Shown: one piece after another, positions 2,254-14,750 of the stretch
Layout of the letters: every line of letters starts with the position of its first letter
How positions within the stretch are numbered: position 1 is the stretch's first letter
DNA from: an uncultured Clostridia bacterium
GTDB lineage: Bacteria; Bacillota; Clostridia; Oscillospirales; Acutalibacteraceae
Direction: 5' to 3'
Assembly: GCA_946407065.1 (NCBI GenBank)
Contig: CAMJMQ010000015.1
Location: 708-64,707 of the forward strand
Length of the DNA: 64,000 nucleotides
The notes under the pieces: generated by a model
What the model saw: only the letters and a program-made list of their open reading frames with translations
Told to the model about the DNA's origin: nothing
The model's database searches: none
Position numbers and translations under genes: made by a program

Positions 2254-2340
2254 AAAAAAATAAAGGCACCTCGGACTATGTGTCCGAGACGCCTTTGTCT
2301 CAACAGCACGAATTATACGCCCAAATCATTTGTTTGTCAA
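2254..2340 (-). promoter_or_regulatory. Promoter plus ANTAR-type hexaloop / terminator leader of gdhA
   Basis: Minus-strand reading is TTGACA(2335-2340)-17 nt-TATAAT(2312-2317), then GAGAC-AAAGGC-GUCUC (2286-2301). The long hairpin AAAGGCGUCUCGGAC...GUCCGAGGUGCCUUU followed by U7 re-uses the same bases. Confidence 0.7.
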
Positions 2341-2441
2341 GCGATAGAACGAATTTTAACAAAACTTACTAATTGATTTTGCAGGATTGCCTTTCTTTTC
2401 TTGCAAAATGTGAAAAGTTCGGGCTCGCTCAAAATGAGGGA

Positions 2442-2540
2442 TTGACATAAAAAAATAATTATGTTAAAGTGATAGCGGAACAAAGGCGTTCATTTGAGGC
2501 AGTATTTTGCACTGCTCCAAATGGCGCTTTTTTATTTTTT
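2442..2540 (+). promoter_or_regulatory. Promoter plus first hexaloop/terminator module of the glnA-1 leader
   Basis: TTGACA 2442-2447, 17 nt, TAAAGT 2465-2470. GAAC-AAAGGC-GUUC at 2478-2491. An overlapping long hairpin ends in CUUUUUUAUUUUUU. Confidence 0.65.
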
Positions 2541-2542
2541 AT

Positions 2543-2592
2543 GGTCATTGCGAGGGCTCGACACGCGTGTCAGCCCGTGGCAATCTCAACCG
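2543..2592. repeat. Palindromic intergenic repeat, family 1, copy A
   Basis: GGTCATTGCGAGGGCTCGACACGCGTGTCAGCCCGTGGCAATCTCAACCG. It shares both termini (GGTCATTGCGA / GTGGCAATCTCAACCG) with the copies at 9478, 12520 and 22561. Confidence 0.75.
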
Positions 2593-2602
2593 ATTATGTT
2601 AT

Positions 2603-2657
2603 GAACAATGGCGTTCATTTAGGATTCTACGTCCTAAGTGTCGCCTTTTTTATTTTG
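2603..2657 (+). promoter_or_regulatory. Second hexaloop/terminator module of the glnA-1 leader
   Basis: GAAC-AAUGGC-GUUC at 2603-2616, then hairpin GGCGUUCAUUUAGGA...UCCUAAGUGUCGCC plus U6AUUUU. It is a direct repeat of the module at 2478. Confidence 0.6.
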
Positions 2658-2688
2658 TCAGTATCTCTAACACAAGGAGTGCGGTAAT

Positions 2689-3900
2689 ATGAATCATACA
2701 GAACAAGAGCTGATGAAGCAGATCGAAGAAGAGGACGTCAAGTTCATTCGTCTATCCTTCTGCGATATTTACGGCGTTCAAAAGAATATCTCTATCCAGC
2801 GCAGTGAGTTGCCCAGAGCGTTTGAGAAAGGGATCGGGATCGACGCTTCCTACATCAACGGCTTTGGCGGTGATTACGGCAAGGATATCTGGCTTCATCC
2901 CGAAACCGACACGATCACGGTTTTGCCGTGGCGGCCTGAGCACGGCAAGGTCGTTAGGATGTTCTGCACGCTGACCTATGAGGATGGCACTCCTGTCGAG
3001 ACCGACACTCGCGCTCTGCTGAAGAACGCGGTCAAATATGCGCAGTCAAAGGGATATCGCTTCCACTTTAAGTCTGAATTACAGTTCTATCTGTTCAAGA
3101 TGGACGCCGACGGCGAGAACACCGGCGTTCCCTATGACAGCGCAAGCTATATGGATATCGCGCCTCTGGATAAGGGTGAGAATGTTCGCCGTGAGGTCTG
3201 CCTGACGCTTGAGCAAATGGGGATCGACCCCGAGAGTTCTCACCATGAAGCAGGACCCGGACAGAACGAGATCGACTTCCGCTATGCCGATCCGATCACA
3301 GCCGCGGATAATACCGTGACCTTCTTGAGCGTCGTGCGCACCATAGCGGCACGCAACGGCTTGTACGCGGACTTCTCACCCAAGCCGATCAAGGATAAAA
3401 CGGGCTCGGCGCTGCATATCTCTGTATCTACCAAAGCAAAGACGGGTGAGGATGTGACCGACGCCTCGATCGCGGGTATCCTGCATAACATTGCGGGTAT
3501 GACGGTATTCCTCAACCCGAAGGCAGAGTCCTTTGAGCGCTTCGGCAAGCATAAGGCGCCGAAGTATATCACTTGGTCACAGACGAACCGCTCGCAGCTT
3601 ATCTTCGCACGTTACACCGAAAACGGGAATCGCTGTGCCCAACTGCGTTCACCCGACCCTGAGGCGAATCCGTATCTGGCATACGCGCTGATGATCTACG
3701 CGATCATGGACGGTATCGAAAACAACAGGGCGTTGCCGCAACCCACAGATGAAAGTGTTGTACAGTTCGTGAGCACCGATACGGCAGAGCCGCAAAAGCT
3801 GCCCGACAGCTTGGCGAAGGCGCGTATCGAAGCGACCAATTCACCCCTTGTACAGCAGTTCATTTCCTCGGCGATCACAAGGATTTACTGTGCCGAATAG
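2689..3900 (+). CDS. glnA: Glutamine synthetase family protein (short, 403 aa, GS-I-like), paralog 1
   Basis: AAGGAG RBS. Motifs FCDIYGVQKN, HHEAGPGQNEIDF and NPYLAYALM are typical of the GS catalytic domain. Confidence 0.85.
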   Translation: MNHTEQELMKQIEEEDVKFIRLSFCDIYGVQKNISIQRSELPRAFEKGIGIDASYINGFGGDYGKDIWLHPETDTITVLPWRPEHGKVVRMFCTLTYEDGTPVETDTRALLKNAVKYAQSKGYRFHFKSELQFYLFKMDADGENTGVPYDSASYMDIAPLDKGENVRREVCLTLEQMGIDPESSHHEAGPGQNEIDFRYADPITAADNTVTFLSVVRTIAARNGLYADFSPKPIKDKTGSALHISVSTKAKTGEDVTDASIAGILHNIAGMTVFLNPKAESFERFGKHKAPKYITWSQTNRSQLIFARYTENGNRCAQLRSPDPEANPYLAYALMIYAIMDGIENNRALPQPTDESVVQFVSTDTAEPQKLPDSLAKARIEATNSPLVQQFISSAITRIYCAE

Positions 3901-12663: not shown

Positions 12664-12671
12664 TTGATAAA

Positions 12672-12715
12672 AGTACAAAGGCGTACTCTGCTGATGCGGG
12701 GTACGCCTTTATTAG
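12672..12715 (+). promoter_or_regulatory. Hexaloop/terminator module in front of the amt-PII gene
   Basis: AGUAC-AAAGGC-GUACU at 12672-12687 competes with AAAGGCGUAC...GUACGCCUUU(AUUAG). I could not find a clear promoter, so it may act as an internal attenuator after the GS-III gene. Confidence 0.5.
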
Positions 12716-12816
12716 TGGTCAGTGATTAGTGGTCAGTTAACCGATGACCGAAACTATATAAAAAATGCTAATGACCGGCAATATGCAGCCGGTTACTCAA
12801 TTTGGAAGGTGAAACT

Positions 12817-14544
12817 ATGACTATGACAGTAGAATTCTGGTTCCTGATCGGAGCCGCGCTGGTGTTCTGGATGCAGGCAGGCTTTGCCATGGTAGAGGCG
12901 GGCTTTACCCGCGCAAAGAACGCCGGCAACATCATCATGAAAAACCTGATGGACTTTTGTATCGGTACGGTCGTGTTCGCTCTCTTGGGCTACACGATCA
13001 TGATGGGTGAGGATACCCTGTTCGGACTGATCGGTATCCCGAACATGGACTTGTTCGGTCACTTCAAGGAGTTCATCGCATCCCCTGGCAACGGCGACTT
13101 TACCGCCGCTTCCACATTCGTATTCAACCTCGTTTTCTGCGCCACCACCGCGACCATCGTATCCGGCGCGATGGCGGAAAGAACGAAATTCTCCGCTTAC
13201 TGTATCTACTCGGGCGTTATCTCGCTGTTCATCTACCCGATCGAAGCGCACTGGATCTGGGGCGGCGGCTGGCTCTCTCAGCTGGGCTTCCATGACTACG
13301 CAGGTTCCTGCGCGATCCACATGGTCGGCGGTATCGCGGCGCTGGTCGGCGCAGCGATCCTCGGTCCGCGTCTCGGCAAGTATGAGCGTGATGAAAACGG
13401 CAAGGTCGTCAAGGTCAACGCATTCCCCGGTCACAACATCGTCATCGGCGCGTTGGGCGTATTCATCCTGTGGCTCGGTTGGTACGGCTTCAACGGCGCG
13501 GCGGCGACTACTCCGAGTGAGCTTGCTTCTATCTTTTTGACTACCACCATCGCTCCCGCGGTCGCCACCTGCGTCACGATGGCATTCACATGGATCAAAA
13601 ACGGCAAGCCCGATGTATCCATGTGCCTGAACGCATCCTTGGCAGGCTTGGTCGGAATCACCGCAGGCTGCGACGCGCTTGACGCGATCGGCGCGACCGT
13701 CGTCGGCGTTGTCAGCGGTATTCTGGTTGTCGTCGTGGTCGAGGTGCTTGACATGAAGCTGCACATCGACGATCCCGTCGGCGCGGTAGGCGTGCATATG
13801 GCGAACGGTATCTGGGGCACGATCGCGGTCGGTCTGCTCGCCAACCCCGACGCTCCCGCAGGGCTGAACGGTCTGTTTTACACCGGCGATTTCAAGCAGC
13901 TCGGTCTGCAGTTCTTAGGCTTCGGCTCCGTGGCGATCTACGCCGCGATCATGATGATACTCACCTTTGTCATCATCAAGAAGACCATCGGTCTGCGCGC
14001 GTCGGCTGAGGACGAGATCATGGGTCTGGATATCACCGAACACGGTCTGCCCTCTGCTTACGCGGGCTTTGCGGCTGCCGCTGAGGACTACTCCGTCTAC
14101 GGCGAGGATGTTGCCGTTGTCGCGGGTGAAACGCCCGTGGCAGAAGCTGTCGAGGTCAAGAGCGTTCCGTCCTTTGATAACGGTGAACAGCGGTTCACAA
14201 AGATCGAGATCATCTGTAAGGAAGCGCGGTTTGAAAAGCTCAAGAGAGCGATGGCGCAGCTCGGTATCACCGGCATGACCGTCACCCATGTCATGGGCTA
14301 CGGCTCGCAGAAGGGCAAGCCCGAATACTACCGCGGCGTTTTGGTCGATACCAACCTGCTGCCCAAGATCCAGGTCGAGATGGTCGTATCCGCGATCCCT
14401 GTCCGCGATGTGATCGAAGCGGCGAAGAAGGCGCTCTATACCGGACACATCGGTGACGGCAAGATCTTTGTTTACAACGTAGATAACGTGGTCAAGGTCC
14501 GCACCGGTGAAGAGGGCTACGCCGCCCTGCAGGATGTAGAATAA
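12817..14544 (+). CDS. amt: Ammonium transporter fused to a C-terminal P-II (GlnB/GlnK) domain
   Basis: Start MTMTVEFWFLIGAALVFWMQAGFAMVEAGF behind GGAAGGTG. Amt signature and about 11 TM segments. The last ~110 aa (FTKIEIICKEARFEKLKRAMAQLGITGMTVTHVMGYGSQKG...GDGKIFVYNVDNVVKVRTGE) have the P-II fold pattern including a T-loop-like YGSQKGKPEYYRG. Confidence 0.85.
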   Translation: MTMTVEFWFLIGAALVFWMQAGFAMVEAGFTRAKNAGNIIMKNLMDFCIGTVVFALLGYTIMMGEDTLFGLIGIPNMDLFGHFKEFIASPGNGDFTAASTFVFNLVFCATTATIVSGAMAERTKFSAYCIYSGVISLFIYPIEAHWIWGGGWLSQLGFHDYAGSCAIHMVGGIAALVGAAILGPRLGKYERDENGKVVKVNAFPGHNIVIGALGVFILWLGWYGFNGAAATTPSELASIFLTTTIAPAVATCVTMAFTWIKNGKPDVSMCLNASLAGLVGITAGCDALDAIGATVVGVVSGILVVVVVEVLDMKLHIDDPVGAVGVHMANGIWGTIAVGLLANPDAPAGLNGLFYTGDFKQLGLQFLGFGSVAIYAAIMMILTFVIIKKTIGLRASAEDEIMGLDITEHGLPSAYAGFAAAAEDYSVYGEDVAVVAGETPVAEAVEVKSVPSFDNGEQRFTKIEIICKEARFEKLKRAMAQLGITGMTVTHVMGYGSQKGKPEYYRGVLVDTNLLPKIQVEMVVSAIPVRDVIEAAKKALYTGHIGDGKIFVYNVDNVVKVRTGEEGYAALQDVE

Positions 14545-14635
14545 AGGATTTACGGGAGCCGAAACCGTTCCCTTCAAAATACCGGATAATAACTCTCAAC
14601 AGCGTTGCCTTTTTCTGAGCGGCTCCCTTAAGTCA

Positions 14636-14666
14636 CAGACCCCGAGGATCATTTCTTCGGGGTCTG
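14636..14666 (+). terminator. Terminator after amt-PII
   Basis: CAGACCCCGAGG...CTTCGGGGTCTG followed by TTCTT. Confidence 0.55.
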
Positions 14667-14669
14667 TTC

Positions 14670-14750
14670 TTGACAAATGACGCGCTGCGTCATATAATAC
14701 ATGAAGGCAAAGACGCCTTGGATATCCAAAGCGTCTTTGCCTATTTTTAT
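14670..14750 (+). promoter_or_regulatory. Promoter plus hexaloop/terminator leader of purF-carAB
   Basis: TTGACA 14670-14675, 17 nt, TATAAT 14693-14698. AAGGC-AAAGAC-GCCUU at 14704-14719. Competing hairpin GGCAAAGACGCCUUGGA-UA-UCCAAAGCGUCUUUGCC plus UAUUUUUAU. Confidence 0.7.

Follow-up and report, generated by a model that had tools for sequence, protein, structure and literature searches.

The window studied here is a 64,000-nt stretch of DNA from an uncultured Clostridia bacterium of the family Acutalibacteraceae (GCA_946407065.1, contig CAMJMQ010000015.1, positions 708-64,707), a Ruminococcus-like organism from the rumen. Eight copies of a short RNA element, all within window positions 2250-14750, lie upstream of genes for nitrogen assimilation and glutamine use, among which two ANTAR-domain proteins are also encoded. 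Each copy, or module, combines a small hairpin with a six-nucleotide loop (P1) and a much longer terminator hairpin that overlaps it. The modules, designated A to D and G to J, were located by reading intergenic regions and extracting the RNA-sense strand, and a covariance model returns the same eight sites, in agreement with a first-pass annotation made from the sequence alone. The remaining 50 kb of the window contains no module. Open reading frame (ORF) annotation covers the first 20 kb, where Pfam confirms glutamate dehydrogenase (GDH), two type I glutamine synthetases (GS-I), GlmS, an aminotransferase, a type III glutamine synthetase (GS-III), a fusion of the ammonium transporter Amt with P-II, PurF and the two ANTAR proteins.

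Module A (2252-2340, minus strand) precedes gdhA. Its promoter (2340 to 2312) matches the consensus TTGACA-17-TATAAT at 12 of 12 positions, and P1 (ttgagacAAAGGCgtctcgg, 2303 to 2284) overlaps a terminator helix that runs from 2296 to 2262 and is followed by AUUUUUUU. The gene for GDH (ELFV_dehydrog; listed at 864-2309, minus strand) is over-extended as an ORF, because the true start codon lies below the module. Two attenuators in series precede glnA-1 (2689-3900, plus strand), which Pfam identifies as a GS-I gene. The first, module B (2442-2541, plus strand), has a 10/12 promoter at 2442-2470, P1 gaacAAAGGCgttc at 2478-2491 and a terminator at 2482-2531 with a U tract. The second, module C (2601-2655, plus strand), consists of P1 atgaacAAUGGCgttcat at 2601-2618 and a terminator at 2607-2645, followed by UUUUUUAUUUU. 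Module D (6750-6842, minus strand), which had been called an orphan, has a 12/12 promoter (6842 to 6814), P1 aagacAAAGGCgtctt (6803 to 6788) and a terminator (6798 to 6759) ending in a U tract; the label no longer applies, since a conserved candidate small RNA of about 130 nt lies downstream (see below).

Two divergent modules separate the genes for ANTAR-2 and GS-III. Module G (10170-10258, minus strand), before ANTAR-2, has a 12/12 promoter (10258 to 10230), P1 gataaacAAAGGCgtttatt (10223 to 10204) and a terminator (10216 to 10176) with a weak U tract. Module H (10313-10405, plus strand) precedes the GS-III gene (10425-12518, plus strand; Pfam), with a 12/12 promoter at 10313-10341, P1 aagacAAAGGCgtttt at 10352-10367 and a terminator helix at 10357-10393. 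Module I (12672-12720, plus strand) is situated between the GS-III gene and amt-PII (12817-14544, plus strand; Pfam), which encodes a 575-aa ammonium transporter with a C-terminal P-II domain. It comprises P1 agtacAAAGGCgtact at 12672-12687 and a terminator at 12677-12710, whose tail AUUAGUGG is again a weak U tract. Module J (14670-14750, plus strand) precedes purF-carA-carB (14778-20492, plus strand), a run of genes for glutamine-dependent enzymes in which purF is assigned by Pfam and the carA and carB labels are those of the first-pass annotation. Its promoter (14670-14698) scores 12/12, P1 aaggcAAAGACgcctt occupies 14704-14719, and the terminator helix at 14709-14738 is followed by UAUUUUUAU.

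Across the eight modules, P1 stems are 4-7 bp long (4-6 bp in the earlier description). The loop is AAAGGC in six, AAUGGC in C and AAAGAC in J, exactly the counts given before, and A1 and G4 are present in every loop. The closing pairs are AC..GU in seven modules and GC..GC in J. Consensus-type promoters had been reported in front of seven modules and are present in front of six, five of which are perfect. Because modules C and I have no promoter of their own, they are internal or tandem attenuators. A U-rich tract follows the terminators in general, as described before, with G and I as the weak cases.

For all eight modules, the fold of lowest energy is the long terminator (-19 to -31 kcal/mol). 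The isolated P1 hairpin has an energy of -1.6 to -7 kcal/mol across the six modules measured (all except D and H). The earlier proposal that the two structures exclude each other holds in every copy. The part of P1 that they share had been given as the 5' arm and loop; it is the loop and 3' arm, which form the 5' strand of the terminator in all eight modules. In H and J the terminator takes in the 5' arm of P1 as well, and in A and D the fold of lowest energy has part of that arm paired with the U tract. Whichever arms overlap, P1 and the terminator are mutually exclusive.

The terminators of H (10353-10397) and J (14706-14741) are near-perfect palindromes, so that a P1-like hairpin and a terminator can also be drawn on the opposite strand. 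The mirror copy of module H, which faces the divergent ANTAR-2 side and is scored as a separate match, is probably a by-product of this symmetry.

The decamer ACAAWGRCGT occurs eight times in 64 kb where 0.42 occurrences are expected, none of 100 shuffled sequences reaches eight, and all of the matches fall within 2.2-12.7 kb. A covariance model was built for the hairpin only, since the apical hairpins are of unequal length and a MAFFT alignment of the eight full modules therefore misaligned the 3' arms. Run with filters off, this model finds the eight sites and nothing further in the window below E = 0.9. Modules C and B, which were outside the training set, are recovered at E values of 0.042 and 0.064, respectively. 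A search with 4227 Rfam covariance models yields no match at gathering thresholds in the whole window and none at E ≤ 5 in the region 2200-15000.

The hairpins closely resemble experimentally studied targets of ANTAR proteins. Figure S1 of Ramesh et al. 2012 (PMC3369931) gives a seed alignment in which P1 of the Listeria eutG leader is GUAC-AAAGGC-GUAC, and the hairpin of module I is identical to it. The same alignment lists AC-AAUGGC-GU as P1 of Enterococcus faecalis eutG and eutP, GC-AAAGAC-GC as P2 of eutG and an AAAGGC loop in P2 of nasF (PMC3369931). Judged by sequence, the three loop variants of the window and both of its closing-pair types are thus within the known ANTAR repertoire.

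Related loci were collected by scanning genomes, one per species, with an alignment of the two window ANTAR proteins and 13 homologues. At least 550 stretches encode an ANTAR relative, and 76 of these loci, totaling 1.03 Mb, were taken for study. The closest come from metagenome-assembled genomes of Ruminococcus-like rumen bacteria, with 87-97% identity; the distant ones, at about 40% identity, include Roseburia, Agathobacter, R. bicirculans and many Oscillospiraceae. A strict scanner, which demands an AnnGnn hexaloop, a stem of at least 4 bp, complementarity of the loop and 3' arm to a downstream 10-mer and then a run of T residues, reports 144 sites in 1.10 Mb compared to 18 in the reversed sequence; the loop is AAAGGC in 96 of the 144. 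A fold-based scan of the same 1.10 Mb reports 146 sites versus 7 in reversed sequence, with AAAGGC in 107 of the 146. The strict scanner overlooks B and C, whose terminators are bulged, and some modules with weak U tracts in relatives, for example in loci L041 and L076, where the modules were confirmed by reading the sequences. The window and loci together contain 121 C-AAAGGC-G hairpins whose stem has 4 bp or more, and 107 of them carry an overlapping terminator.

The small stem was also examined for covariation, a check that the first-pass annotation had listed as able to refute its proposal. Sites were re-selected without regard to the stem, because an earlier set had demanded at least 4 bp and was therefore useless for testing pairing. 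The new set was chosen on loop, closing pair and terminator alone and contains 53 distinct sequences; 34 of the 87 stem-blind sites are ordinary AAAGGC terminators, which serve as background. Each of the P1 pairs 2-5 is present in 44-51 of the 53 sequences, with several pair types, compared to 10-16 of the 34 background sites. Stem cells are paired in 85.4% of cases, versus 33-48% when the partners are slid. Double-change cells number 90 against 8-32, the covariation score of 0.593 compares with no more than 0.182, and none of 500 shuffles reaches the observed values. The sequences fall into orthologous groups, so that independent events are fewer than these cells, and at least eight different stems are represented. 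The outer stem pairs covary as well (for example, AU 23 and GC 23 at one position, UA 23 and AU 18 at another), around a consensus of RC-loop-GU across relatives. The small hairpin is thus supported by covariation.

Modules in relatives are always in sense orientation to the downstream gene. The downstream gene encodes GS-III for 30 modules, GS-I for 22, a class-II amidotransferase of the glutamate synthase (GOGAT) type for 20, an ANTAR protein for 16, GDH for seven, and PurF and Amt-P-II for five each. Single modules precede genes for CTP synthase (PyrG), phosphoribosylaminoimidazolesuccinocarboxamide (SAICAR) synthase (PurC), a periplasmic amino-acid-binding protein and large-subunit GltB. 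Stem sequence is tied to gene class, with ugagc..guuca before GOGAT, gagac..gucuc before GDH and guac..guac before amt, and these stems are kept across Clostridia families. The loop also depends on the gene in one case. All five purF leaders within the loci, including those of L011, L015 and L018, have AAAGAC or AAAGAU, a departure from AAAGGC at loop position 5 that is kept across species; module J has AAAGAC, and nearly all other modules have AAAGGC. The purF-specific variant may tune affinity or pick one of the two ANTAR paralogues.

Promoters are part of the conserved arrangement. A match of at least 9/12 lies within 70 nt of 95 of the 116 distinct modules (60 of them perfect), a frequency that is 4% at random positions. 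The distance from the end of the -10 element to loop position A1 is 11-16 nt, with 15 nt the most frequent value, and P1 therefore begins a few nucleotides from the 5' end of the transcript. Several relatives carry tandem modules before GS-III, among them L051 (about 3200-3300, minus strand), L063 (about 3480-3560, minus strand) and L076 (8280-8420, minus strand), the last with loops AAUGGC and AACGGU. Tandem attenuators, as also found before glnA-1 in the window, seem to be a recurrent means of tightening control.

Canonical ANTAR targets, such as the EutV sites of eut, the NasR site of nasF and the AmiR site of amiE, share with the modules the A1/G4 hexaloop, the loop sequences, the closing pairs and the opposition of a weak antiterminator to a terminator. 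In those targets the closing pairs, A-U and then C-G, are conserved, and the other pairs of the helix count only for structure. They differ in having two tandem hexaloops 5-12 nt apart, with the terminator overlapping P2, whereas each module here has one hexaloop that is itself invaded. The first-pass annotation had cautioned that a second hexaloop was hard to see, and this caution was well founded. Among 104 distinct modules, four have a second AnnGnn hexaloop hairpin of 3 bp or more, where 7.0 are expected from shuffled sequences. Loops of the apical hairpin range from 3 to 10 nt; 18 of 100 are hexaloops, three of these AnnGnn, and the hairpin is only the tip of the terminator, with no conserved sequence. 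Upstream candidates lie inside promoter DNA and are not conserved, and the 11-16 nt between the promoter and the loop leave no room for a hairpin before P1. A second conserved hexaloop on either side of P1 was therefore rejected. The modules lack the two tandem hexaloops of a canonical target and agree with the single-hexaloop minimal motif of Walshe et al. 2022 (PMC8934654). From sequence conservation, the single hexaloop is a trait of the modules and not a flaw in them. Since the terminator invades this sole hexaloop hairpin, one bound hairpin would take about 10 bp off the terminator base.

The presumptive readers of these hairpins are ANTAR-1 (193 aa; 3941-4522, plus strand) and ANTAR-2 (194 aa; 9542-10126, minus strand), each of which consists of a pseudo-receiver and an ANTAR domain. 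As reported before, both are encoded in the cluster; they score 49.3 and 49.0 bits with PF03861 (cutoff 27.3) and are 55% identical to each other. The Response_reg model gives 21.6 bits for ANTAR-1, below its cutoff of 30.2, and 38.9 bits for ANTAR-2. The suspected loss of the phospho-acceptor aspartate is borne out by alignment to Rv1626, in which FVIVN falls on LVIMD and LVVSSSE on LIAEDE, so that the acceptor and the acidic pair are both gone. Asn58 of the VIVNAPL segment takes the acceptor position and is invariant in an alignment of 15 family members, as are the motif NAPLxDEFGxRL and nearly the entire ANTAR domain.

In the structure of EutV, the hexaloop is contacted by Lys149, Glu160 and Tyr164, the last of which stacks on G4 (PMC8934654). 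According to a phmmer alignment with a +2 offset inferred from Asp54, the positions of Lys149 and Glu160 appear to correspond to invariant K152 and E163 in the window family, and that of Tyr164 to a histidine (see below). An AlphaFold2 model of the ANTAR protein (pLDDT 89) has RNA-bound EutV (6ww6_B) as its best match in the Protein Data Bank, with a TM-score of 0.75, followed by Rv1626 and AmiR; in this predicted model the ANTAR fold is a three-helix domain after a long coiled-coil helix.

ANTAR-1 starts 41 nt 3' of glnA-1 with no terminator between them, and an ANTAR gene lies directly 3' of a GS-I gene in nearly all 76 loci. A frequent unit in these loci is module-GOGAT-glnA-ANTAR, divergent from GS-III and amt. 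ANTAR-2 stands apart from this glnA-ANTAR layout. We infer from the sequences that the two paralogues have the same RNA specificity, since the RNA-binding domain is common to both and the main differences are in the pseudo-receiver, and that they respond to different or combined inputs. ANTAR-2 would also be self-regulated, because its gene follows module G.

Taken together, the match to known targets, the covarying stem, the competing folds, the recurrence in 76 loci and the protein fold make it probable that the cluster is an ANTAR protein-dependent transcription attenuation regulon of the same kind as those of NitR and GnfR, with a single hexaloop per module. The antitermination regulon put forward in the first-pass annotation thus stands in its essentials. 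We infer binding, termination, the direction of regulation and the signal from module anatomy and from the precedents of EutV, NasR and GnfR. The strong sigma-70 promoters, five with a perfect consensus, would fire constitutively, and transcripts would start 0-4 nt before P1 (consensus RC-AAAGGC-GU). By default, the loop and 3' arm of P1 would pair downstream to form a 15-20 bp intrinsic terminator, and polymerase would stop about 50 nt into the transcript, before reaching the gene. Active ANTAR-1, ANTAR-2 or both, acting as dimers, would clamp the nascent hexaloop hairpin, in which A1 and G4 are the known contact positions, and withhold the terminator base. The leftover short apical hairpin has no adjacent U tract and would allow read-through into gdhA, glnA-1 and ANTAR-1, the small RNA, ANTAR-2, the GS-III gene, amt-PII and purF-carAB. 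Because both regulator genes sit behind modules, the regulon would contain positive feedback. By analogy with NitR, induction is expected under nitrogen limitation.

Several observations weigh against this interpretation. The modules lack the second hexaloop that canonical targets require, and P1 is so near both the 5' end and the terminator that the time for binding would be very short. Modules G and I have poor U tracts, and module J reaches only 10-12 bits with the hairpin model trained on AAAGGC, its loop being a variant. At the position of the G4-stacking Tyr164 of EutV, the family has an invariant His167 (Phe in Rv1626, by the same offset-based alignment). The co-occurrence of modules with ANTAR genes is biased by design, as the 76 loci were picked via the ANTAR gene. 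Finally, it would be physiologically unusual for gdhA, purF-carAB, pyrG and purC to share the positive control of GS and Amt; the signal may track glutamine supply rather than ammonium as such.

Other explanations for the modules must be considered as well. One is that the hairpin is read by another trans-acting factor, such as an RNA-binding protein or GS or P-II acting on RNA, and that the ANTAR genes are mere regulated cargo. Their own position downstream of modules is compatible with this, as is the histidine in place of the stacking tyrosine. However, the loop and closing pairs are identical to those of the GnfR site and of ANTAR targets established by experiment, the ANTAR domain is nearly invariant, as expected for the reader of an invariant RNA, and an ANTAR gene is in the cluster in 76 of 76 loci, though these loci were picked on that basis. 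Such an arrangement is unlikely. The pattern of variable arms around an invariant asymmetric loop, in constant sense orientation and fused to a terminator, does not bear on that case; it speaks against each of the remaining alternatives. It is hard to reconcile with passive or unregulated attenuators, in which transcription kinetics or nucleoside triphosphate levels would set read-through with no protein partner. No other fold comes close to the terminator in stability, and A-rich starts such as AAAGGC are frequent in terminators, as the ordinary ones among the stem-blind sites attest. Against this, the stems covary, 107 of the 121 C-AAAGGC-G hairpins carry the overlapping terminator, and gene-class-specific stems are kept across Clostridia families, all of which would be unexpected without a sequence-specific reader and makes a purely passive device quite improbable.

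It is more improbable still that a repressor binds the inverted repeat as a DNA operator, even though the location of the repeat at about +3 to +20 of perfect promoters is typical of operators. Operators have conserved arms; here the arms vary with compensation while the non-palindromic AAAGGC spacer is invariant, every copy is in sense orientation and joined to a terminator, and modules C and I have no promoter to repress. Least probable of all is a small-molecule riboswitch, for example a glutamine-sensing leader. The controlled genes do make or consume glutamine, but conservation is limited to a hairpin of 14-20 nt, the rest of the leader is free in sequence and length, and no Rfam family matches even at the permissive threshold.

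With asparagine in place of the acceptor aspartate, the signal to the regulators cannot be phosphorylation and is presumably a ligand or a protein partner; no kinase gene is among the annotated ORFs of the first 20 kb. The activity of the pseudo-receiver would be set by a nitrogen-reporting ligand or partner, as in AmiC-AmiR or NasS-NasT, and GS or P-II is an attractive candidate for the partner. A more specific version is possible, although doubtful as a whole: the modules would be natural single-hexaloop ANTAR antiterminators run by a phosphorylation-independent regulator of the NitR type, whose pseudo-receiver is switched by contact with GS or P-II, in a regulon that reaches glutamine-consuming enzymes and a new small RNA. 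A single 5'-terminal hairpin would then suffice, directly sequestering the terminator base. In nearly all relatives, GS is encoded immediately upstream of the ANTAR protein. If true, this contact would be a trigger-enzyme interaction that passes nitrogen status to RNA, an RNA-level counterpart of the interaction of GS with TnrA or GlnR.

The closest precedents each share some of these properties. In Clostridium saccharobutylicum, the ANTAR gene nitR is directly 3' of glnA, and NitR is reported to induce GS/GOGAT by antitermination under nitrogen limitation (Stutz et al. 2007, as cited in PMC6316151). The glnA-nitR order is common to ANTAR-1 and nearly all 76 loci, a likeness of gene order; judged by its genes, the window adds a second, stand-alone and apparently self-regulated paralogue, ANTAR-2. 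GnfR of Geobacter sulfurreducens antiterminates nitrogen genes, with RNA binding demonstrated, and its site CAGGCAANGGCGCC, which reads GGC-AANGGC-GCC, is single and lies upstream of and overlapping a terminator (Ueki & Lovley 2010, PMC2995071). Phosphorylated GnfR binds RNA with CAGGCAAGGGCGCC, read as GGC-AAGGGC-GCC, which overlaps nif terminators (PMC2995071). Module J (GGC-AAAGAC-GCC) is similar to this site. GnfR is a true response regulator with a kinase, GnfK, sigma-54 promoters and nif, glnK and amtB as targets, whereas the window system has no acceptor aspartate, consensus sigma-70 promoters and targets in assimilation and biosynthesis. AmiR of Pseudomonas aeruginosa offers a parallel for the protein, with a receiver fold that lacks a phosphorylation site (1qo0 matches the model with a TM-score of 0.64). 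AmiR is kept inactive by the amide sensor AmiC, and no AmiC-like partner was identified for the window proteins.

The single hexaloop deserves comparison with two earlier studies. The dual hexaloop is essential for EutV in vivo (Ramesh 2012, PMC3369931). The crystal structure of Walshe et al. 2022 shows that the ANTAR dimer engages hexaloops singly; the minimal motif was redefined as one hexaloop, held by both ANTAR domains of the dimer, and the existence of natural single-hexaloop sites was posed as a question (PMC8934654). Such sites were expected away from the time pressure of a transcribing polymerase, whereas here they occur in what appear to be co-transcriptional terminator switches. Ramesh 2012 also predicted ANTAR regulons with P-II, amt, GS and GOGAT genes in Desulfotomaculum, Carboxydothermus, Alkaliphilus and others, and the corresponding table has few entries from Lachnospiraceae or Ruminococcaceae (PMC3369931). 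This scarcity is consistent with a dual-hairpin model overlooking single-hairpin sites.

The concept of ANTAR control over nitrogen genes is thus a known one, preceded by NitR in 2007, GnfR in 2010 and the predictions of 2012. New are a conserved arrangement with a single hexaloop, placed at the very 5' end of transcripts that start from consensus promoters, and its spread through gut and rumen Clostridia together with an invariant pseudo-receiver ANTAR family. New too, as far as sequence can tell, is the extension of the regulon to glutamine-consuming biosynthetic genes, with a candidate small RNA under module control. The EutV-RNA structure of 2022 left single-hexaloop co-transcriptional antitermination unsettled, and this locus and about 100 related modules provide natural test cases. 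In Clostridia that are abundant in rumen and gut (Ruminococcus-like bacteria, Oscillospiraceae, Roseburia and Agathobacter), the system appears likely to be a master switch for nitrogen assimilation. A perfect consensus promoter joined to a 50-nt switch is also compact and portable, and hence attractive for engineering.

The segment downstream of module D (6562-6691, minus strand) has a terminator of its own (6597 to 6569) and a GGGGAG sequence; a further stretch, CACACUCCCCUUUGG, is rich in C and U and resembles an anti-Shine-Dalgarno sequence. The segment is kept in nine related loci, even where the flanks have insertions, and its folding z-score is -4.2. The segment contains no conserved ORF and has no Rfam match. 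It is limited to the closest clade, where little covariation is available, and it is convergent with the 3' end of glmS. A protein-coding reading was considered and rejected, as the 81-aa and 207-aa ORFs downstream of D are broken by indels or antisense to glmS, and the region is read as non-coding. The segment is a candidate ANTAR-controlled small RNA.

Not every gene of the cluster carries a module. A second GS-I gene, glnA-2 (6949-8157, plus strand; region 6885-8157), has an 11/12 promoter, TTGACA-17-TATGAT, and no module, so that one glutamine synthetase appears to escape the switch. The glmS leader (4525-4612) likewise lacks a module and has just a terminator following ANTAR-1. In the first 20 kb, no P-II gene was seen apart from the fusion with amt. 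Reading of the intergenic regions of the window, to which this inspection was confined, disclosed no obvious GlnR/TnrA box (TGTNAN7TNACA).

The cluster also contains an intergenic repeat family of the form GGTTGAGATTGCCAC...(hairpin)...YTCGCAATGAC, with copies at 2544-2591 (minus strand), 9504-9542 (plus strand), 12522-12661 (plus strand) and 22563-22603 (minus strand). Three of the four copies are in the nitrogen cluster, where one separates modules B and C, one follows ANTAR-2 and one is situated between the GS-III gene and module I. In form the family looks like a repetitive extragenic palindromic (REP) element or a miniature inverted-repeat transposable element (MITE).

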